This document shows, piece after piece, positions 1 through 61,643 of a DNA stretch of 64,000 bases. The translations under genes and the position numbers were made by a program. Numbering within the stretch: the stretch's first letter is position 1; each line of letters opens with the position of its first letter. The notes under the pieces were generated by a model that had not been told where the DNA came from, made no database searches, and saw nothing but the letters and a program-made list of their open reading frames with translations. The stretch lies in assembly GCA_016872555.1 (NCBI GenBank), contig VGZO01000014.1:4834-68833 (forward strand), written 5' to 3'. This DNA is from Planctomycetota bacterium. Lineage in GTDB: Bacteria; Planctomycetota; Planctomycetia; Pirellulales; UBA1268.

Positions 1-620
1 ATGCCGTCGGCGAGGCTCTCACGGCAGCCGTAGAGGTTGTCGAACTTGCTCTTGGTGCAGGAGTCGTTGATGTTGATCGCCGGCAGTTTGAGCTCGCCGT
101 TCTCGTGCATCTGGTAGAGGCGGTGAACCCCCGTGGTCGTCTCCTCGGAGAGACCGCGGATCCCGCCGATCAGTTCCGGATACTTGTTGTGAACCATCGC
201 GGTCAGGTCACCGCCGTCGTCGAGGATCATGTTGAGCGGCTCGCCGTTGGGGAAGAACAGCGTCTGCTCGATGCACCAGTCGAACTCCTCATTGGTCATT
301 CCCTTCCAGGCGTAGACCGGGAACCCCGCCTTGGCGATCGCGGCGGCGGCGTGATCCTGGGTGGAAAAGATGTTGCAGCTGCTCCAGGTCACCTCGGCTC
401 CCAGCTCGCGGAGGGTCTCGATGAGCACCGCGGTCTGGATCGTCATGTGAAGGCAACCGGCGATCCGTGCTCCCGCCAGCGGCTTGCTGCGGCCGTACTT
501 CTGCCGCAGCGCGATCAGGCCCGGCATCTCGTTCTCCGCCAGCATGATTTCCTTGCGGCCCCACTCCGCGAGAGCGAGGTCGGCGACTTTGTAGGGAAGG
601 CGGGTTTCGACGTGGGCCAC
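1..620 (-). CDS. ahcY: adenosylhomocysteinase, N-terminal ~206 codons (3' part runs off the window start)
   Basis: Absent from the ORF track because it is truncated. My reverse-strand translation from GTG at 620 reads [43 protein letters not shown]...[16 protein letters not shown]...[42 protein letters not shown], the hallmark AhcY N-terminal region. AGGAG lies 7 nt upstream of the GTG. Confidence 0.93.
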
Positions 621-727
621 AGGGAAACTCCTGAAAGGCGGGAGGAAAGGCAGAAGAAAAAGGGGCGGCACCGACAGCAGACCGTGCATCAAGTGACCGG
701 CCGCCGGATGCGGCCGACGGCGACCCG

Positions 728-794
728 GGAAACCGTTGGCGTTTCCCACGGTCGCCTGAGTGGACACAGGCCACGGTGGGCTTTGTCCACGGAC
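728..794. repeat. 67-nt double-hairpin intergenic element, copy 1
   Basis: ggaaaccgttggcgtttcccacggtcgcctgagtggacacaggccacggtgggctttgtccacggac is 61/67 identical to 30078-30144 in the same orientation. It contains GGAAAC-N7-GTTTCC and GTGGACA(C/A)AG-N11-CTTTGTCCAC stems. It lies between the trpF stop (861) and the ahcY start (620). Confidence 0.85.
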
Positions 795-860
795 GAACAA
801 GAGATCTTAGCCGTCCGGCAGTCCCTGCAAAGGGCACCGCGATCCCCTCTGCCGACCGGG

Positions 861-1589
861 TCAGCGCCCGGCGAAGGCCGTCCGGGCGGCGGCGACGAAC
901 CGCTCCATCGCCACGCGGTCCTTCCGGCCTGGCGCCGATTCGACGCCACTGGCGACGTCCACGGCGACCGCGCCGCTATTCCGGATGGCGGTCGCCACGG
1001 TGTCGGGGCGTAGTCCCCCTGCCAAGCCGACCGGCACCGGCAGCCCGCCGGCATCGCGCAGCGCCAGCCAGTCGACAGTCCGCCCCGTGCCGCCGAGCGT
1101 CGCGGCGGTGGCCGGGCCGGCCGGTGCGGCGTCGATCAACATCAGCACCGGCGCGTGGCCCAGTGCGTCGGCCCGCGCCAGCCACTCGCGCGCGGGGTCG
1201 AGGGCATCCGGCCCGGCACCGGGCGCGAAATGGACCGCGCGGATCACCGGCAGCTCGGCCAGTGCCGCGCAGGTCTCGGGAGGATCGGCGAGCGTGGGAT
1301 CGGCCGCCGGCCACCGGCCGTGGAGTTGGACGGCGTCGAGCCCGACGGCGGCGACGCATCGACGGATCTCCGCCGCGGTCGCGCCGACGAACACGCCGAC
1401 GCGCAGCATGTCCGGGGGGACGGCTGCGGCAATGTCGCTGGCGCGCTCGATCGACAGGCAGCGAGGCGACCCGACGACGAAGTTGAGGCCGATCGCGTCG
1501 GCCCCGGCCGCCGCCGCGTCCTTGGCGTCGGCGGCGCGGGTGATGCCGCAGATCTTCACTCGGAATGGTGCGGATCGCTCGCTGCTCAT
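861..1589 (-). CDS. trpF: phosphoribosylanthranilate isomerase
   Basis: The 242-aa ORF shows FRVKICGITRAADAKDAAAAGADAIGLNFVVGSPR...LHG...LAGGLRPDTVATAI...VAVDVASGVESAPGRKD, the typical TrpF TIM-barrel signature. Confidence 0.9.
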   Translation of the reverse strand: MSSERSAPFRVKICGITRAADAKDAAAAGADAIGLNFVVGSPRCLSIERASDIAAAVPPDMLRVGVFVGATAAEIRRCVAAVGLDAVQLHGRWPAADPTLADPPETCAALAELPVIRAVHFAPGAGPDALDPAREWLARADALGHAPVLMLIDAAPAGPATAATLGGTGRTVDWLALRDAGGLPVPVGLAGGLRPDTVATAIRNSGAVAVDVASGVESAPGRKDRVAMERFVAAARTAFAGR

Positions 1590-1778: not shown

Positions 1779-3107
1779 ATGCACCAGCGACGCCACCCTT
1801 CGAGCCGCCCGTTTCTCGCCGCCCCGCGAACGGCGTTTTACCACCCGGCGCGGCAGATCGACGCCGCCCTCACCGGGCTCGAGCGCGGGGTGCGACGGGC
1901 CGAGGGGGTCGGCCTCGTCGTCGGACCTCCAGGCACTGGAAAGTCGTTGCTCCTGCTGGCGCTGGCCGACAACCTCGCCGAAGATTTCGCCGTCGCATTG
2001 TCGTGCGGTGCGCGGATCTGCACGCGGCGCGCCCTCTGGCAGGCGATCCTGTCGGGAATCGGCGAACCGTTTCGTGGGATCGACGAGGGGGAGCTGCGTC
2101 TGGCCGTCGTCGAGCGGGTGCGCGGCCTGGCAGCGACCGGCGCGGGGCTCGTGATCCTCGTCGACGAGGCCCACACGCTGCCGCTCCGGCTGCTCGAAGA
2201 GCTCCGCCTGCTGACGACGATCCCGACGCCGCTCCCTGCCGTGCACCTGGTGCTCGCCGGAACCGTGGCCCTCGAGGAGCGGCTCGCCAATCCGCGGCTG
2301 GAGAGCCTCGCGCAGCGGATCGGCGGTCGGTTCACGCTCGAGGCGCTGGACCATGCCGAGACGTGTGCGTACGTCCGGACGCAGATGAAGGCCGCCACGC
2401 GGCAGTGGGAGACGGTGTTCGCCGCCGGGTGCGACGATGTCGTCTTTCAGGTGACCGATGGTGTGCCCCGGCTGATCAATCAGGTGTGCGACCTGGCGCT
2501 GGTCCGGGTCGCCGACGAGGGACGGGCCCGGGTGCTGCCGGCCGACATCGAATCGGCGTGGGCCGACATCCAGCGTCTGCCCGTTCCCCACGGGCGGCGC
2601 CTGGCGGCGCCGTCGGTCGTCGAGCGACCCGACGACGAGGGGGAGATCGAGTTCGGCGTGCTCGACGGGGCGGTCTCCGCGCCGCTGGTGGAACCGCCGG
2701 TGATGGTGCCGGGCCCCCCGGTCGCCGCACTGCCCGGGGCCGATCCCTGGGCGGGGCCCGACGTCGAGTTCGTCACCGAAATGCATTCCGATCCGTTCGC
2801 TTCCTGTTTCGCCGGGGACGACGCCGAGGTGGAGCGGATCGTCCGCGACGGGCCCCAGGGATTCACCGGTCACGGCTCCGTCGCCAGCGACGAGGGCCGG
2901 CGTCTGGCGACCACCCTCGCCCGGCTCGATCACCAGGAGGCCGGATCCCCCCCGGTGGCGACGGTCACGGCCGACGACGGCGACGAGGCGGACGATGGCG
3001 ACGACGGACTGATGGTGATCGAGGAGGATGTCGTCCCCCAGCCGAGTCCGGTCCGGGCGGGCCGCTACCGCGACCTGTTCGCACGCTTGCGCCGCGGAGG
3101 AGGCTGA
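1779..3107 (+). CDS. ExeA-like AAA ATPase (AAA_22 type) with an acidic disordered C-terminal tail
   Basis: Walker A GLVVGPPGTGKS, Walker B LVILVDEAHTL, then LRLL...LVLAG and RIGGRFTLEALDHAETCAYV, as in GspA/ExeA-type ATPases. I prefer the ATG at 1779 (in frame, 17 codons inside the track ORF). The start is uncertain. Confidence 0.75.
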   Translation: MHQRRHPSSRPFLAAPRTAFYHPARQIDAALTGLERGVRRAEGVGLVVGPPGTGKSLLLLALADNLAEDFAVALSCGARICTRRALWQAILSGIGEPFRGIDEGELRLAVVERVRGLAATGAGLVILVDEAHTLPLRLLEELRLLTTIPTPLPAVHLVLAGTVALEERLANPRLESLAQRIGGRFTLEALDHAETCAYVRTQMKAATRQWETVFAAGCDDVVFQVTDGVPRLINQVCDLALVRVADEGRARVLPADIESAWADIQRLPVPHGRRLAAPSVVERPDDEGEIEFGVLDGAVSAPLVEPPVMVPGPPVAALPGADPWAGPDVEFVTEMHSDPFASCFAGDDAEVERIVRDGPQGFTGHGSVASDEGRRLATTLARLDHQEAGSPPVATVTADDGDEADDGDDGLMVIEEDVVPQPSPVRAGRYRDLFARLRRGGG

Positions 3108-28680: not shown

Positions 28681-29856
28681 TCAGACGCCCAGCGCCTTGA
28701 GGACCTCGACCATCGGATTGACGACCGGGCCGAGGATCTCGCCCACGCCCGGGATCGCCATCACCTTCTCGATCAGCCCAGTCAGGCTGCCCATCCCCTT
28801 GCCGACCGTCTCCTTGACCGCCGCCCGACCGGCGTCGGGCAGGGCCGCCGTCCGATCCTTGATCGACGTCAGCGTGGGGAGGAGATCCTTGAGGGTCGGG
28901 ACGATCGACTCGGCCGACGCCGCGTCGGTCACGCCGCCGAGGGTCGTGGTGAGGCTGCCGAACAGGCCGGTGAGGTCCTCGCCGATCTTGACCGCGTCGC
29001 CGAGGTTGGCGGGCAGTTCCAGGCCGCTGTCGGCCGGCTTGACCTCGATCTCGCGGGCCGGCTCGACCGAAAGCGGCATCTGCACGTTCGGGGCCGCCAT
29101 CTGGTTCCCGGCTGGCTTGTTGGCGCTGTTGTTCAGGTACCACCAGGCGCCCAGGCCCACCAGCGGCAGAAGCAACAGCGGGAGCCATGCCGGGAAGCCC
29201 GACCCGGTCGGCTCCGGCTCACGACGGGTCTGCGAGTGGGAGTGTGAGTGGTCGACGTGAGTCGAACGCCGCTCCTCGCCCCGCCGCTCGTCGTGGTGGC
29301 CACCGCCGGCGACGGCGCCGGTCGCGGCACTGACGAAGTCACCCAGCGACAGCCCCTTGGGCAACGCACCGGTGATGTTCGAGGCCTGCGACGACAGCAG
29401 GCTCTGCACGCCGCGGGCGTCGATCTTTCCACCCTTGAACGAGCTGGCCACCTGCCCGAGGACGACCGGGGCCAGATACGTCAGCAGCGTCTTGGTCATT
29501 CCGGGCTTCATGCCGAGGAACGAGGCCAAGGCGTTGACCAGCATCGAGGTGCCGGCATTGCCGAACAGCGAACCGAGCAGGCTGCCGCCCATGTCGGCGG
29601 CGCGGCTGGCATTCGATCCACCGAACAGGCCGGCGAGGTTGCCGAGCATGCCCATGTCGAGGCCGCCGAGCGCCGAGGCGATCTGCCCCGCACCGTTGTC
29701 CGTCGACGCCAGCTTGGAGAGCCCGCTGAGCAGCGCCGGTACGGCTGCGGCTGTTGCCGACTTGGTCTGCCGGCTGTCGGCGCCAATCAGCGAGCCGAGG
29801 CTGCCGAGGACGGCGTCGTTGGACAGTTGGCCCGTGATCATCTCAACCAGATTCAT
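28681..29856 (-). CDS. DUF937-domain protein with a central TM segment
   Basis: The N-terminus MNLVEMITGQLSNDAVLGSLGSLIGADSRQTKSATAAAVPALLSGLSKLAS is typical of DUF937. It is followed by a His/Arg-rich linker (HVDHSHSHSQ), the TM helix WLPLLLLPLVGLGAWWYL and a C-terminal domain. Confidence 0.75.
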   Translation of the reverse strand: MNLVEMITGQLSNDAVLGSLGSLIGADSRQTKSATAAAVPALLSGLSKLASTDNGAGQIASALGGLDMGMLGNLAGLFGGSNASRAADMGGSLLGSLFGNAGTSMLVNALASFLGMKPGMTKTLLTYLAPVVLGQVASSFKGGKIDARGVQSLLSSQASNITGALPKGLSLGDFVSAATGAVAGGGHHDERRGEERRSTHVDHSHSHSQTRREPEPTGSGFPAWLPLLLLPLVGLGAWWYLNNSANKPAGNQMAAPNVQMPLSVEPAREIEVKPADSGLELPANLGDAVKIGEDLTGLFGSLTTTLGGVTDAASAESIVPTLKDLLPTLTSIKDRTAALPDAGRAAVKETVGKGMGSLTGLIEKVMAIPGVGEILGPVVNPMVEVLKALGV

Positions 29857-30077
29857 TTGCAGCTCCAGAAGCAGAAGAAAAAACGCCGCCCGCCGATCAA
29901 GCGGTGAACGGTCATGAAAACCGTGTACCGATCCCTCTCTCAGGGATCCGTTGTCTTACCCCCTTTTTCGGGTCGCCACAAGCAGCCCGCGGAACCGTTT
30001 CGGCCGCTGAAAAGAGCTGACGGACGGGGCGATTGTGCGGGCAGGACGACTGGCTGAAGGCACCCGTTGCAGACCAT

Positions 30078-30144
30078 GGAAACCCTTGGCGTTTCCCGCG
30101 GTCGCCCGAGTGGACAAAGGCCAGGGAGGGCTTTGTCCACGGAC
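30078..30144. repeat. 67-nt double-hairpin intergenic element, copy 2
   Basis: ggaaacccttggcgtttcccgcggtcgcccgagtggacaaaggccagggagggctttgtccacggac is 61/67 identical to 728-794. Here the second stem is a perfect 10 bp. The element ends 16 nt before the U32 ATG. Confidence 0.85.
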
Positions 30145-30160
30145 AGCTAGACTGCGAGAC

Positions 30161-32686
30161 ATGACCGACCGCCGCACGCCGCCGGGCCCCGAATTGCTCT
30201 CCCCGGCCGGGGACCACGACTGCGTGGCGGCCGCCGTCGAAAATGGTGCCGATGCCGTCTATTTCGGCCTCGATGTCGGGTTCAATGCCCGAGCCCGGGC
30301 GACCAATTTCACGCTCGAGGAGCTGCCCCGGCTCGTTTCCGACCTCCACCGCCGCGGGGTTCGCGGCTACGTCACGCTCAACACCCTGGTGTTCCAGGCG
30401 GAGCTCGCCGACGTGGCGCGGGTGGCGGCAGCCGTCGCCGCCGCAGAGGTCGACGCGGTGCTCGTCCAGGACGTCGGCGCCGCGCGGCTGATGAAGGTCG
30501 TCTGCCCCGAGCTGCCCCTCCACGCTTCGACCCAGATGACGCTCTCGAGCGCCGAGACGATGGTCCTCGCCCGGCAGTTGGGGATCGAGCGCGTGGTGGT
30601 GCCGCGTGAATTGTCGGTGGCGGAAATCGCGCAGATCGCGGCGGCGACCGATCTCGAGCTCGAGGTCTTCGTCCACGGCGCGCTGTGCGTGGCGTGGTCG
30701 GGGCAGTGCCTGACGAGCGAATCGCTCGGCGGGCGGAGCGCCAACCGTGGCCAGTGCGCCCAGGCCTGCCGGCTCCCCTACGAGCTGGTCTGCGACGGCC
30801 GTCCGGTCGACCTCGGCGCCCAGCGGTATCTGCTCTCGCCGCAGGATCTCGCTGCCCACGCGCTGGTGCCCGATCTGATCCGCGCCGGAGTGGCGAGCCT
30901 CAAGATCGAGGGGCGGCTGAAGTCACCCGAGTACGTGGCCGCGATCACCCGTCACTACCGTTCAGCGATCGACGCCGCCGTCGCCGAGCGGCCCGCGCCG
31001 CTCGACGCAGCCGCGCGCGAGGAGATGGAGATGGTCTTCTCGCGCGGGCTGTCCACGGGATGGCTCGGCGGCACCGACCACAAGCGGCTGGTGCCCGCCA
31101 CCAGTAGCGCCAAGCGTGGGCTGCGCGTGGGAACGGTGACCGCGACGCGGCGCGGACGCGTCGAGGTGGAGCTCTCGGGGAGCCTGCAGCGCGGCGACGG
31201 CGTCGCGTTTGGCGGTGTCGCCGACGATCCGTCCGGCGGGCCCGGTGGGCCGCAAGGGGGCCGGATCTACGAAGTCTTCGCCGCCGGGGAATCGGTCGGC
31301 GGCGCGGTTGCCGCCGGGCGGGTGGAGCTGGCCTTCGGCCGCGACGCCGTCGACGTCAACGCCGTGGCACCCGGACAGGCGGTCTGGAAGACCGACGACC
31401 CACGGCTCAGCGCACGGCTGCGCGAGACCTTCGCCGGGCGAACGCCGCGCCGCCGCCGGGCCCTCGACCTGACCGTCCGGGCGGTGGTCGGCGAGCCCCT
31501 TGCGGTGACGGCCAGGGTGGCGGGCTCCCCTGGGGCTGTGACGGTGACGGCAGACGATCCCCTCGAGCCAGCGCGGCGCCACGCGCTCGACACCGCCGTG
31601 CTCGGGGAGCAGTTCGGCCGTCTCGGCGGAACGGCTTACCGTCTCGAATCGATCGCGGCCGAGATCGTCGGCGCGCCGATGGTGCCGTTGAGCGTGCTGG
31701 GGAAAGTCCGTCACGCGCTGGTCGCCAAGCTCGACGCTGCCTCCACCGACCGGGCACCGCGGGCGATCGACATTGATGCGGGAATAACGCTCGTCGCCGC
31801 GGTGGCCGACCGGTCCGCCGCCGCGCCCACCACGCTCCACATCCTCTGCCGGTCCGTCGAACAGGTCGAGGCGGCGGTCGGCCTCGGGGTCGCCGACCTG
31901 TACGCCGAGTTCGCCGACATCCGGCGCTACGCCGATGCCGTCCGGATCGCGCGTGCCTCGGGGGCGCGGCTGTTCACCGCCACGCCGCGGATCCACAAGC
32001 CGGGGGAGACCGGGATCTTCGCGCTCCTCGAGCGCCAGCGTCCCGACGGCATCCTGGCGCGGAACGCCGCCGCCCTCGACCACTTCCACGCCCGCGGCGT
32101 GCCGGTGGTCGGCGACTTCTCGCTCAACGTCACCAACGCCCTGTCCGCCGGGCAGTTCCTCGCCGCCGGCTGCCGCCGGGTGACCGCCGCCTACGACTGC
32201 GACCGCGAACAGCTCCTCGCCCTCGCCGAAGCCGTGCCCGGCGGGGCGCTCGAGGTGGTGATCCACCAGCGGATGCCGCTGTTCCACATGGAGCACTGCG
32301 TGTTCTGCGCGGTGCTCTCGCCGGGGACCGACAAGACCAACTGCGGCCGGCCGTGCGACGACCATGTCGTCCACCTCCGCGACCGAATCGGGGTCGAGCA
32401 TCCGCTCACCGCCGACGTCGGCTGCCGCAACACGCTCTACAATGCCGTCCCCCAGACCGGCGCCGAGGTCGTCGCGCGGCTGCGCGCGGTCGGGGTCCGC
32501 GACCTCCGCGTCGAGGTGCTCGCCGAGTCGGCTGCCGAGGTCGCGACCGTCGTCTCCGCCTATCGCGGGTTGCTCGCCGGCACGCTCGACGCCCGCACCG
32601 TCCGCACGCGCCTCGGAGCGATGAACCGCGTCGGCGTCACGACCGGCACGCTCGAAACCCGGCGCGACCCGCTGGCGATCGTGTGA
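30161..32686 (+). CDS. long-form U32-family protein (peptidase U32 / RlhA-TrhP-UbiU-like)
   Basis: ELLSPAGDHDCVAAAVENGADAVYFG, ASTQMT, VPRELS, EVFVHGALCVAWSGQCLTSESLGGRSANRGQCAQACRLPY (U32 Cys motif), LKIEGRLKSPEYVA. A second U32-like half follows (RIHKPGE...HQRMPLFHMEHCVFC...CGRPC). The ATG at 30161 is in frame with the track ORF. Confidence 0.88.
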   Translation: MTDRRTPPGPELLSPAGDHDCVAAAVENGADAVYFGLDVGFNARARATNFTLEELPRLVSDLHRRGVRGYVTLNTLVFQAELADVARVAAAVAAAEVDAVLVQDVGAARLMKVVCPELPLHASTQMTLSSAETMVLARQLGIERVVVPRELSVAEIAQIAAATDLELEVFVHGALCVAWSGQCLTSESLGGRSANRGQCAQACRLPYELVCDGRPVDLGAQRYLLSPQDLAAHALVPDLIRAGVASLKIEGRLKSPEYVAAITRHYRSAIDAAVAERPAPLDAAAREEMEMVFSRGLSTGWLGGTDHKRLVPATSSAKRGLRVGTVTATRRGRVEVELSGSLQRGDGVAFGGVADDPSGGPGGPQGGRIYEVFAAGESVGGAVAAGRVELAFGRDAVDVNAVAPGQAVWKTDDPRLSARLRETFAGRTPRRRRALDLTVRAVVGEPLAVTARVAGSPGAVTVTADDPLEPARRHALDTAVLGEQFGRLGGTAYRLESIAAEIVGAPMVPLSVLGKVRHALVAKLDAASTDRAPRAIDIDAGITLVAAVADRSAAAPTTLHILCRSVEQVEAAVGLGVADLYAEFADIRRYADAVRIARASGARLFTATPRIHKPGETGIFALLERQRPDGILARNAAALDHFHARGVPVVGDFSLNVTNALSAGQFLAAGCRRVTAAYDCDREQLLALAEAVPGGALEVVIHQRMPLFHMEHCVFCAVLSPGTDKTNCGRPCDDHVVHLRDRIGVEHPLTADVGCRNTLYNAVPQTGAEVVARLRAVGVRDLRVEVLAESAAEVATVVSAYRGLLAGTLDARTVRTRLGAMNRVGVTTGTLETRRDPLAIV

Positions 32687-33217: not shown

Positions 33218-34209
33218 TCCAGCTCCAGGGAGGACCGATCCTTCGGCAGGATCGCGGCGTTCCAGGCCGTCTGGTCGACGTTGACGTTGACCGCCCGGGT
33301 GCTGCCGTCCCCCATCCCGCAGAGCACGACGCCCGGAGAGTGCCCGATCGCCCGGGTCTCCGACCAGAGGCACTGGCTGCGCTGTGGCGTCGCCAGGGGG
33401 AGGAAGAACGACCGGTAGTTGGGGTCGTTCTGGTTGCTCGTGTAGCCGACGTTGATCCGTGCGAACACCGGCCAGTAGCGGTCGTCGGCGGGGTGGCCCC
33501 AGGCGTTGCCGAAGGTGTCGGTGTTGTTGGGCTGCGGGGCCGGACCACACCCCATCCGCCGCTCCGCCAGGAAGATCGTCTTGCTCGTGCCGTCGATCAC
33601 CGAGGCCATCGTCTTCTGGCCGTGGGTGTTGTGCCAGTTCCAGATGTCGCCAGGGACGTTCTCCGGCCGGCCGAACACCTGGAAGTTGCAGCCATAGCTG
33701 CAGAGGGCGACGTCGACCGGATTCCGCCACATCCATCCGGCCGAGAAGCCGCCCGCGTGAATCGACGAGGTGGCGCTGGCGTCGTTGGGTGCGACGAGCG
33801 TCGGGATCACGACGCTCATCGCGGCGCGGGTGGCGTCGATCTGCCCGAGGCCGCTCCCCTTCCAGTTGGAGATCGCGTTGGGGAGTTGCCCCTCCTCGAA
33901 GTAGGGCGTCAGGCAGAAGAAGAACGTGCCGTCGCTCTTGGTGTAGCCGCCGGTATACGTCGGGCTGCTCCACCAGAAGGCGACCGCCGGCGGGAAGCAC
34001 TTCATCGCGTCGTGGGCGTTGTGGGTGGCCAGGCCGATCTGCTTGAGGTTGTTGAGGCTCTGCGACCGCCGTGCCGCCTCGCGCGCCGCCTGCACCGCCG
34101 GCAGGAGGAGGCCGACGAGCGTGCCGATGATCGCGATCACGACGAGGAGTTCGACGAGCGTGAACCCGCGGCGGCGTGAGGCCGGGAGCAGGACGGTGGA
34201 TCCGGTCAT
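33214..34209 (-). CDS. DUF1559 protein with a prepilin-type N-terminal cleavage/methylation domain
   Basis: [56 protein letters not shown] is the canonical planctomycete DUF1559/type IV pilin-like N-terminus. I start at the ATG (MTGS) at 34209, inside the track ORF. Confidence 0.85.
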
Positions 34210-60233: not shown

Positions 60234-61643
60234 ATGCGCCAGCCGCGGATCATCGTCATCGACGCAGCGGGGCCGGCGGCGCTCCCCTACGCCCGTCTGG
60301 TCGCCCGGCTCCAGCCCCTCGAGCTGCGGATCGAGACGAACGTCGATGCCGCGCTGGAGGCGGTGGCGCGCGATTCGTGGGATCTCGCGGTCGTCACGGC
60401 CCGCGACGCCCTCCCCGCGGCGCGGTTGCTGGAGAGCGTGCGTGCGGCCGATCCCCAACTCCCGGTGGTGGTCATCGATTCCGAGCCGGCGGTGGCGACG
60501 GCGCGGAAGTGTCTCCAGGCGGGAGCCACCGATTATCTCGAATTGGCCCGTGTCGATGCCGAGCTCGAGGGGGCGCTGGGGCGCCTCCGGGAGGCGGCAC
60601 GCCGCCAGGCGAGGGGCGAAACGCTGCGCCGTGCGGTCGAGCGTCCCTATTCGTTCGAGGAGTTCATCGGCGAAAGCGCGCCGATGCGGCAGGTGTATGC
60701 CCTCATCGAGCGCGTCGCCGCCAGTTCGATCGACGTCCTCGTCAGCGGCGAGACCGGCACCGGCAAGGAACTGGTGGCCCGCGCGATCCACAGACGCAGC
60801 CGGCGGGCGGCCGGTCCGTTCGTGCCGGTCGACTGCGGGGCGATCCCCGACACGCTCCTCGAGAGCGAGTTGTTCGGCCACGAGCGCGGGGCGTTCACCG
60901 GCGCCGACGCGCGGCGGATTGGCCTGGTGGAGTGCGCCGACGGCGGCACGCTGCTCCTCGACGAGGTCGGGGAGCTGCCGCCGGCGCTCCAGGCCAAGCT
61001 GCTCCGCGTGCTCCAGGAACGGCGCGTCCGCCGGGTCGGCGCGCGGCAGGAGACCGCGGTCGACGTCCGCGTGGTCGCGGCGACGTCACGGCCGCTCGAC
61101 GCGATGGTCGAGCGCGGCCAGTTCCGCCGGGATCTCTTCTTCCGGATCAACGTCGTCCGCGTCGACCTGCCGCCGCTCCGGGCGCGCGGCGACGACATCG
61201 GCCTCTTGGCCGAGGCCTTCGCCAGCCGCGCCGCCCACGAGGCGGGGCGGCCGGTGCCGGGGCTGTCGGCCGACGCCTACCAGGTGCTCCGGAGCTACTC
61301 CTGGCCGGGTAACGTCCGGGAGCTGTCCAACGTCATCCGCCGCGCCGTGGCGATGGCGACGGGGCCGCTGGCCGGCGTCGACGACCTCCCCGACGAGCTC
61401 GTCGCCGCGGCCGGTCGCGGTGCCGAGCCGGAGGGAGCGACGGGATTCTTCGCGCAGCGTGCCGAGCACGTCGCCCGGTTCGAGCGGCAGTTCCTCGTCG
61501 AATTGCTGTCGCGCCACGTCGGCGACGTCGCCGCCGCGGCACGCGAGGCCCGGCTGCCGCGCGGCACGCTGTACCGCCTCTTGAAGGCGCACGGCCTCGA
61601 CGGGGCGTCGTTCCGCCGGCCGGCGGCTGGGCCACCGGGCTGA
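60234..61643 (+). CDS. sigma-54-dependent transcriptional activator (NtrC family) with a degenerate receiver domain
   Basis: AAA+ core: VLVSGETGTGKELVARAIH, ESELFGHERGAFTGA (GAFTGA), GGTLLLDEVGEL, RVVAATS, WPGNVRELSNVI. C-terminal Fis-type HTH: AAAREARLPRGTLYRLLKAHGL. The N-terminal REC-like fold lacks several conserved residues. Confidence 0.9.
   Translation: MRQPRIIVIDAAGPAALPYARLVARLQPLELRIETNVDAALEAVARDSWDLAVVTARDALPAARLLESVRAADPQLPVVVIDSEPAVATARKCLQAGATDYLELARVDAELEGALGRLREAARRQARGETLRRAVERPYSFEEFIGESAPMRQVYALIERVAASSIDVLVSGETGTGKELVARAIHRRSRRAAGPFVPVDCGAIPDTLLESELFGHERGAFTGADARRIGLVECADGGTLLLDEVGELPPALQAKLLRVLQERRVRRVGARQETAVDVRVVAATSRPLDAMVERGQFRRDLFFRINVVRVDLPPLRARGDDIGLLAEAFASRAAHEAGRPVPGLSADAYQVLRSYSWPGNVRELSNVIRRAVAMATGPLAGVDDLPDELVAAAGRGAEPEGATGFFAQRAEHVARFERQFLVELLSRHVGDVAAAAREARLPRGTLYRLLKAHGLDGASFRRPAAGPPG

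Follow-up and report, generated by a model that had tools for sequence, protein, structure and literature searches.

Two intergenic repeats in a stretch of Planctomycetota DNA, very probably decayed copies of a 119-bp MITE with the ends of IS1182/IS5-like insertion sequences

Two intergenic spacers of the 64-kb window (the whole stretch of DNA that was analysed) carry the same short sequence, at 728-794 and 30078-30144, and pairwise alignment gave an ungapped identity of 61/67 in the same orientation. The pair was reported in an initial annotation as a repeated double hairpin, and it proved to be real, identity and orientation being reproduced. The flanking genes named there were likewise borne out by Pfam (AdoHcyase, PRAI/trpF, DUF937, Peptidase_U32), and they are arranged as follows.

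Start codon at 620, minus strand: S-adenosylhomocysteine hydrolase (AdoHcyase, ahcY)
861-1589, minus strand: PRAI/trpF
28681-29856, minus strand: DUF937 protein
ATG at 30161, plus strand: Peptidase_U32 protein

The distance from the first copy to ahcY, previously given as 108 nt, is corrected to 107 nt, with the ahcY start codon at 620. When each half-pattern was searched with up to three mismatches, exactly two matches were obtained in the 64-kb window, where shuffled sequences would give 0.02 and 0.00, and the window is otherwise free of any stretch resembling the pair. Minimum-free-energy folding of either strand produces both of the hairpins claimed for each copy (z-scores -2.4 to -3.8). 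The scan against Rfam that had been proposed with the first description was run on the whole window and gave no match at gathering thresholds, and around both copies only chance-level matches were obtained at E up to 5-10; no described RNA family was matched, in line with the earlier statement that the sequence was not recognized. A consensus promoter scan around both copies found none, and a terminator scan of the same regions found one terminator-like hairpin, which is part of a conserved leader of the DUF937 gene and not of the element.

Alignment of the copies with their flanks revealed that conservation extends about 50 nt farther in the 5' direction than was originally seen. The consensus unit is 119 nt long (CAGMCCGTGGAAAAAGT-GATCGGCCGCCGGATGCGGCCG-AC-GGCGACCCGGGAAACCCTCGGCGTTTCCCGCGGTCGCC-TGA-GTGGACAAAGGCCAGGGAGGGCTTTGTCCACGGACAG) and has sharp conservation boundaries at its CAG...CTG termini. 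The 67-nt repeat was therefore genuine but under-called, since similarity runs over 678-796 and 30070-30150, and the double hairpin is only the portion still common to two relics. The unit contains three hairpins, namely H0, H1 (hairpin 1 of the initial annotation with an outer stem added) and H2 (hairpin 2 of the same); the two described before were found again, but the hairpin at 698-716 and the 5' terminal module of copy 1 had been overlooked. The element is bounded by TIRs of 17 nt (CAGMCCGTGGAAAAAGT ... GCTTTGTCCACGGACAG). In the family consensus, the 5' end CAGMCCGTGGAAAAAG matches the reverse complement of the 3' end CTGTCCGTGGACAAAG at 13/16 positions, and because the two ends match as inverted repeats, the 3' arm of H2 lies within the 3' TIR. 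The 5' arm of H2 is an internal inverted copy of the TIR core. With a length of 119 bp, the element is too short for a transposase ORF and is non-coding. Its size falls in the range of about 70-300 bp without coding capacity by which MITEs are defined here (PMC3733652), and its TIRs in that of about 15-30 bp. The features of the two copies are listed below.

674..677, plus strand: putative target-site duplication, 5' flank ACAG of copy 1 (3/4 match to ACAA)
678..796, plus strand: copy 1, full-length (119 nt) degenerate MITE, 112.9 bits with the covariance model
678..694, plus strand: 5' TIR of copy 1, CAGACCGTGCATCAAGT, with 3 differences from the family/IS consensus CAGMCCGTGGAAAAAGT
698..716, plus strand: hairpin H0, CGGCCGC-CGGAT-GCGGCCG, present in copy 1 only of the window pair
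719..756, plus strand: hairpin H1 of copy 1 from folding, outer stem GGCGACC...GGTCGCC
760..790, plus strand: hairpin H2 of copy 1 from folding, its 3' arm being part of the 3' TIR
780..796, plus strand: 3' TIR of copy 1, GCTTTGTCCACGGACGA (family consensus GCTTTGTCCACGGACAG)
797..800, plus strand: 3' flank ACAA of copy 1
30070..30146, plus strand: copy 2, internally deleted MITE (77 nt), from comparison with the full copy of the relative L172
30147..30150, plus strand: CTAG 3' flank of copy 2, the canonical target tetranucleotide

Copy 1 sits in the spacer that runs from the trpF stop (861) to the ahcY start (620) and is antisense to both genes. In copy 2, the terminal CAGACC is fused directly to ATGGAAACC, and comparison with the L172 ortholog shows that about 43 nt are missing, namely the remainder of the 5' TIR, hairpin H0, and the outer stem arm on the 5' side of H1. 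The deletion apparently took place between the short direct repeats CCGTGGAAA and CCGGGAAA. The U32 ATG (30161) follows 10 nt past the 3' end of the CTAG flank of this copy. Both copies have probably ceased to be mobile, the TIRs of copy 1 being mutated and copy 2 lacking most of its 5' TIR.

The distribution of the family was studied with an exact-pattern scan (GGAAAC-N6-8-GTTTCC-N11-15-GAGTGGACA) of one genome per species, which returned 37 loci, 34 of them true. Three non-planctomycete matches (L007, L010, and L019) were discarded as chance, the covariance model not having confirmed them. All the true loci belong to high-GC planctomycete MAGs. About 26 copies were located on about 21 contigs of the MAG 'Planctomycetota bacterium REEB424', a count that is a lower bound because the scan was an exact-pattern scan. 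The further host MAGs are one Pirellulales, one Planctomycetaceae, and three labelled Candidatus Kuenenia, and more copies are present on freshwater metagenome contigs, including those of the window's own sample series. A covariance-model search, also suggested in the initial annotation, was run with a model built on the 105-nt core and brought up many further copies: 46 were detected in the pattern-scan loci, and in the window only the two known ones.

Gene context was assessed with our own crude GC3-based caller, which reproduces the known genes around both window copies. According to these calls, 44/46 copies lie outside ORFs, and the gene pairs around the copies comprise 11 co-directional (same/same), 12 antisense (opposite/opposite), 7 divergent, and 3 convergent contexts. 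Across the 46 copies, no orientation bias towards neighboring genes was found, which is unlike the distribution expected of a strand-specific cis-regulatory RNA. The earlier picture of a structured element placed upstream of minus-strand genes is not upheld by this lack of bias, nor by the absence of the element from related spacers.

Several variant forms were encountered among these loci. Those at L013:1977-2043, L012:3097-3140, and L032:2470-2500 are recombinant or deleted; one copy among such forms has lost H1, so that H0 is joined to H2, and 3'-end fragments were also seen that run straight into H0 of the following copy, with no 5' TIR in between. The family is therefore evidently prone to internal deletion and inter-copy recombination. 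In the MAGs labelled Candidatus Kuenenia (L042:4300-4650, L024:6027-6315, L020, L022, L025, L036-L038), the H0-H1-H2 core is found without the 5' TIR module and in alternation with a module of about 95 nt that forms a hairpin (GGCTCGGGGG…CCCCCGAGCC), giving 200-nt tandem units in a BIME-like mosaic. True Kuenenia has a GC content of about 41%, and these MAGs have 66-69%, so their label is doubtful. A weak covariance-model match (31 bits) upstream of trpF in the 68% relatives (L050:2789-2869, also in L051 and L052) could represent one more small element with TIRs, located elsewhere in that lineage.

The flanking 4-mers of 28 copies were compared and are of the YTAR/CTAG type, with the consensus YTAG. 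The first position is C or T in 24-25 of the 28, the third is A in 20-24, and the fourth is G in 25. Both flanks are identical in 8/28 copies, compared with 2.2 in shuffles (P about 5e-4), and the matched variants include TTAA/TTAA, TTAG/TTAG (twice), GTAG/GTAG, TCAG/TCAG, CGAG/CGAG, and CTGG/CTGG. At four tandem junctions, which were read by eye, the copies are separated by exactly one 4-mer, as is expected if a new copy enters the CTAG regenerated at the border of an older copy. The ACAG/ACAA flanks of copy 1 are not of the YTAR type. An IS630/Tc1-like TA duplication was our first hypothesis and was dropped, because the flanking tetramers co-vary and the related insertion sequences are IS1182/IS5-like with 4-bp repeats.

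Comparison of filled and empty sites demonstrated that both window copies are insertions. The trpF-ahcY pair is syntenic in relatives. Where the element is present, in the window species and a relative at 94% identity (L044-L046), about 240 nt separate the two genes; where it is lacking, in L047 and L050 (TrpF 68% identical), the distance is 104 and 98 nt. In the latter two, the motif GCTAAGATCT directly adjoins the CCGCC...CAGGAG...GTG leader at the place where the element sits in the window. The divergent U32-DUF937 spacer is 304 nt long in the window versus 226 and 204 nt without the element in L174 (76%) and L175 (73%), and the 93% relative L172 has two full-length tandem copies exactly at this site. 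The relatives with empty sites, at about 68-76% protein identity, are too diverged for the original target to be read base by base. The homology of L172 with the window (93.5% over 4.5 kb) ends precisely at the 3' end of the element (30148).

Other observations were made at the same two sites. The 10-nt motif upstream of ahcY (806-815, minus-strand reading GCTAAGATCT) is kept in L044, L047, and L050 and is a possible promoter or operator element; insertion of the MITE has left it about 125 nt farther from ahcY in the window species. At the other site, L172 has a G6PD/cNMP-binding gene past the element, where the window has U32 and no G6PD at all. This G6PD gene is bracketed by inverted MITE copies at 424-528 (plus strand), 2543-2647 (minus strand), and 2666-2770 (minus strand), and the end of synteny at the MITE suggests a rearrangement mediated by or associated with it.

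Between copy 2 and the DUF937 gene lies a conserved leader, which is kept in relatives without the element. It is about 130 nt long (29857-29990, minus strand), is conserved in the 73-93% relatives independently of the MITE, and contains TTGCTTGTGG, GTAAGACA, and a CCCT/AGGG hairpin. The terminator-like hairpin with its T-run (29904-29876) is located in this leader, 20 nt before the start codon. Nothing in Rfam matched this leader, which could be truly cis-regulatory. A 12-mer (TTTTTCTTCTGC, minus strand) is present at both 650-661 and 29871-29882, preceding the start codon of ahcY by 30 nt and that of DUF937 by 15 nt. It is kept upstream of DUF937 in relatives and absent upstream of ahcY in the 68% relatives, and it could be either chance or a leader motif. 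BLAST matches to 34011-34174 and 60705-61399 were set aside as unrelated to the element. Read from the translations alone, the former is apparently a prepilin-type/DUF1559-like N-terminus and the latter an NtrC-type sigma-54 activator; both appear to belong to large paralogous protein families of planctomycetes and not to repeats.

A scan of metagenome contigs with the 5' TIR (AGCAGMCCGTGGAAAAAGT) yielded at least 119 loci. Among the matches listed, four kinds of element are headed by this TIR: (a) the MITE of the window (L068, L084, L122, and L160); (b) another MITE, about 122 nt long and unrelated to the first, which lake metagenomes contain in great abundance; (c) small elements whose long TIRs are nearly perfect (L088, L130, L140, and L168); and (d) elements with a transposase ORF beginning about 100 nt inside the TIR. 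The second MITE (…GTCCTCCGGACGTTTTTCCACGG…CAGGCTGTTTATCCACAGCCTG) has the same 17-nt TIR, CTAG flanks, and an unrelated interior, and is often in tandem (L085:29-155, L092:440-565, L067:9970-10095, and many others among L053-L171). Among the matches listed, it is commoner in lake metagenomes than the window's family.

At least 11 complete insertion sequences of 1459-1531 bp, bounded by an inverted second TIR, were recovered. Their 17-nt TIR is identical to the 5' TIR of the MITE; at the end used for retrieval this identity arises by construction, which is not the case for the second inverted TIR, the transposase ORF, or the direct repeats. The flanks are 4-bp direct repeats, CTAG/CTAG in five cases, and also TTAG/TTAG and CTAA/CTAA. 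An intact transposase ORF of 448-468 aa is present in 7 of the at least 11 insertion sequences (L053:10459-11949, also L061, L070, L125, L129, L162, and L165, with the TIR CAGCCCGTGGAAAAAGT), and in the remainder no ORF longer than 150 aa runs without interruption. One of them, the 448-aa ORF from L053, was scanned and matches the Pfam families DUF772, DDE_Tnp_1, and DDE_Tnp_1_6, all above thresholds. In NCBIfam this ORF comes closest to IS1182 (E = 8e-60) and next to IS5, both scores lying below the curated cut-offs (203 vs 270 bits for IS1182; 114 vs 140 bits for IS5_4). Therefore, these insertion sequences are described here as an IS1182/IS5-like divergent lineage and are not filed as members of either family. 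The transposases of different insertion sequences are only 41-48% identical to each other despite their one common TIR, and together they are possibly an undescribed IS group.

The resemblance between the MITE and these insertion sequences is confined to the ends. At the 3' end, 3/17 positions of the MITE's TIR deviate from that of the insertion sequences, and sequence comparison together with covariance-model searches of the MITE interior against the IS interiors found only the 17-18-nt TIR in common. No TIR-sharing insertion sequence was found on any contig carrying the MITE, a search by TIR matching inside the 37 genome loci gave no full-length insertion sequence, and no helper transposase was found in the same genome as the MITE. 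It had been stated at the outset that the claim would fall if the repeat proved to be the terminal repeat of an insertion sequence; in substance this is the outcome, the 5' TIR being identical to that of transposase-encoding insertion sequences.

Taken as a whole, the window pair very probably consists of two decayed copies of a MITE of about 119 bp, whose family would depend on IS1182/IS5-like transposases; a riboswitch, an sRNA gene, and a REP are all rejected. The anatomy of the element, its copy number, the target duplication, the polarity of insertion at both loci, and the existence of insertion sequences with the same ends were observed directly. Having no transposase of its own, the MITE would be moved in trans by the DDE transposase of the 1.5-kb insertion sequences of IS1182/IS5 type; these presumed helpers share its TIR and its 4-bp duplication. 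Insertion of the MITE occurs into YTAR tetranucleotides, mostly CTAG, which get duplicated.

Whether the structure is under selection was examined in two ways. Firstly, compensatory double changes between lineages were found at 4/15 pairs of H1, which is 98% paired, and at 3/7 pairs of H0, in a sample whose copies cluster phylogenetically into a few subfamilies and which is biased by the search pattern that fixed the inner H1 stem. These changes exceed the shuffled expectation. No compensatory changes, only breaks, were seen in H2, so that the tabulation suggested for both stems in the initial annotation gave compensatory changes in the first and none in the second. Since a purely neutral relic would not keep its pairing, the changes in H0 and H1 indicate selection on structure in propagating copies. 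Secondly, the copy between trpF and ahcY was compared with its ortholog in L044: the divergence is 10.9% in the element, 12.5-17% in the adjacent spacer, and 4-5% in coding sequence, and several of the L044 changes break pairs of H1 and H2. The resident copy is thus without host constraint and decays at the rate of the surrounding spacer. The simplest reading would be that hairpin integrity matters for the propagation of master copies and not for the host.

A somewhat different reading, which we regard as unlikely, is that the MITE is more than a parasite and that H0/H1 pairing is kept as a functional module travelling with the element. Such a module could be where the transposase or a host factor binds, or an RNA or DNA structure that terminates, insulates, or stabilizes neighboring transcripts. 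If this is true, copies like the one 10 nt upstream of the U32 start would be recruited as promoter or 5'-UTR parts. Full exaptation of the MITE, with H0/H1 acting for the host as an RNA stabilizer, a terminator or insulator, a promoter donor, or a host-factor site, and with the copy adjoining the U32 start codon shaping U32 expression, is considered very unlikely. Copy 2 ends 10 nt before the U32 ATG, and U32 transcripts must therefore start in or cross the element; moreover, effects on transcription and mRNA stability are established for MITEs of other bacteria, ERIC and Correia among them. However, copy 2 itself lacks H0 and half of the outer stem of H1, and the trpF-ahcY copy evolves like neutral spacer, with stem pairs lost in the sister lineage. 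The compensatory changes at four H1 and three H0 pairs across lineages, which would speak for exaptation, separate subfamilies of different genomes, are explained equally well by needs of the transposition machinery in master copies, and come from the sample biased by the fixed inner H1 stem.

A cis-acting regulatory RNA on the minus strand, that is, a riboswitch-like leader or attenuator upstream of ahcY and the DUF937 gene, was among the options of the initial annotation. The stable folding of both window copies and their position upstream of minus-strand genes would be in keeping with such an RNA, as would the compensatory changes in H1 and the terminator-like hairpin that, with its T-run, intervenes between copy 2 and the start of DUF937. 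Its probability is nevertheless very slight, because the orthologous copy decays at the spacer rate with no sign of purifying selection, and wobble counts (GT/TG 9 vs AC/CA 20) carry no strand signal and favor neither strand decisively. The 46 copies have no orientation preference towards downstream genes, orthologous spacers of relatives do without the element and the real DUF937 leader is kept regardless, Rfam yielded nothing beyond chance level, and TIRs and target duplications are present. There is scarcely any probability that the element is a REP/REPIN palindrome spread by a RAYT (an IS200/IS605-like tyrosine/HUH transposase): it is dispersed, intergenic, and hairpin-rich, and REP families were reported in Planctomycetes (PMC3733652), but a 119-bp unit with three different hairpins and CAG/CTG termini is unlike a 20-40-bp GTAG/CGTC-tagged palindrome, and its TIRs are identical to those of DDE-transposase insertion sequences and go with 4-bp direct repeats. 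Of the three options initially offered, a REP/MITE-like repeat, a protein-binding site, and a cis-acting RNA, the first is the right one; of its "REP/MITE-like" label, the MITE half stands, on the TIRs, the 4-bp duplications, and the dispersed copies, and the REP half does not.

The MITE of the window can be compared with several known systems. In Paracoccus yeei, the intergenic MITEPye1 has 4-bp direct repeats, and its 18-bp TIRs resemble those of IS1182-family insertion sequences (PMC11578231). Both elements are small, non-coding, intergenic, and stably folding, with 4-bp direct repeats and with TIRs that match those of insertion sequences, and trans-mobilization is presumed for both alike. 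The host of MITEPye1 belongs to the Alphaproteobacteria, a different phylum, and the likeness is one of design. MITEPye1 is present in 1-3 copies per chromosome, whereas the window's MITE has at least 26 in one incomplete MAG (REEB424), and tandem arrays and several sister MITE families under one TIR are found in the window's family, unlike in MITEPye1. As in the IS1182 and IS5 families, the TIR-sharing insertion sequences (one protein scanned) encode DUF772 and DDE_Tnp_1 proteins and measure 1.46-1.53 kb. Unlike members of those families, they score below both curated cut-offs, and the window element itself encodes nothing. A 4-bp YTAR duplication is a hallmark of the IS5 group (ISfinder).

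The element also resembles ERIC/IRU of enterobacteria, Correia/NEMIS of Neisseria, and RUP of Streptococcus pneumoniae, which are intergenic, 100-150 bp long, and bounded by TIRs with short target duplications, have extensive hairpin potential, and are present in many copies per genome. MITEs of this classical type are often co-transcribed with neighboring genes and typically duplicate TA; several have a helper transposase that belongs to another family or is not known, and effects on transcripts are documented. They differ from the window's family in their unrelated sequences and their targets. REP, BIME, and REPIN elements are likewise dispersed intergenic palindromes, sometimes in mosaic tandem clusters, with which the 200-nt arrays of the 'Kuenenia'-labelled MAGs may be compared. 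REPs, unlike the window's MITE, are shorter, have no TIRs in common with DDE insertion sequences, and are linked to RAYT tyrosine transposases. It was reported that REPs, as 20-40-bp palindromes tagged GTAG or CGTC, form a group separate from TIR-bearing MITEs (PMC3733652).

Papers on planctomycete MITEs were sought, as was the TIR string itself, and in the literature covered no description of the family or of its TIR was found; the MITE family is therefore probably unnamed, though of a thoroughly known kind. For annotation, the MITE and its sister families with the TIR CAGCCCGTGGAAAAAGT will be met again in planctomycete genomes and freshwater metagenomes, where they look like conserved structured motifs between genes, and families with this TIR should be masked as mobile DNA before searches for riboswitches and sRNAs. 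The element also marks assembly break-points and synteny breaks. The occurrence of one 17-nt TIR across diverged IS1182/IS5-like transposases and several MITE families suggests a large and little-described transposon guild of the Planctomycetota, whose common, ultra-conserved TIR would make a useful system for the study of TIR-transposase co-evolution.
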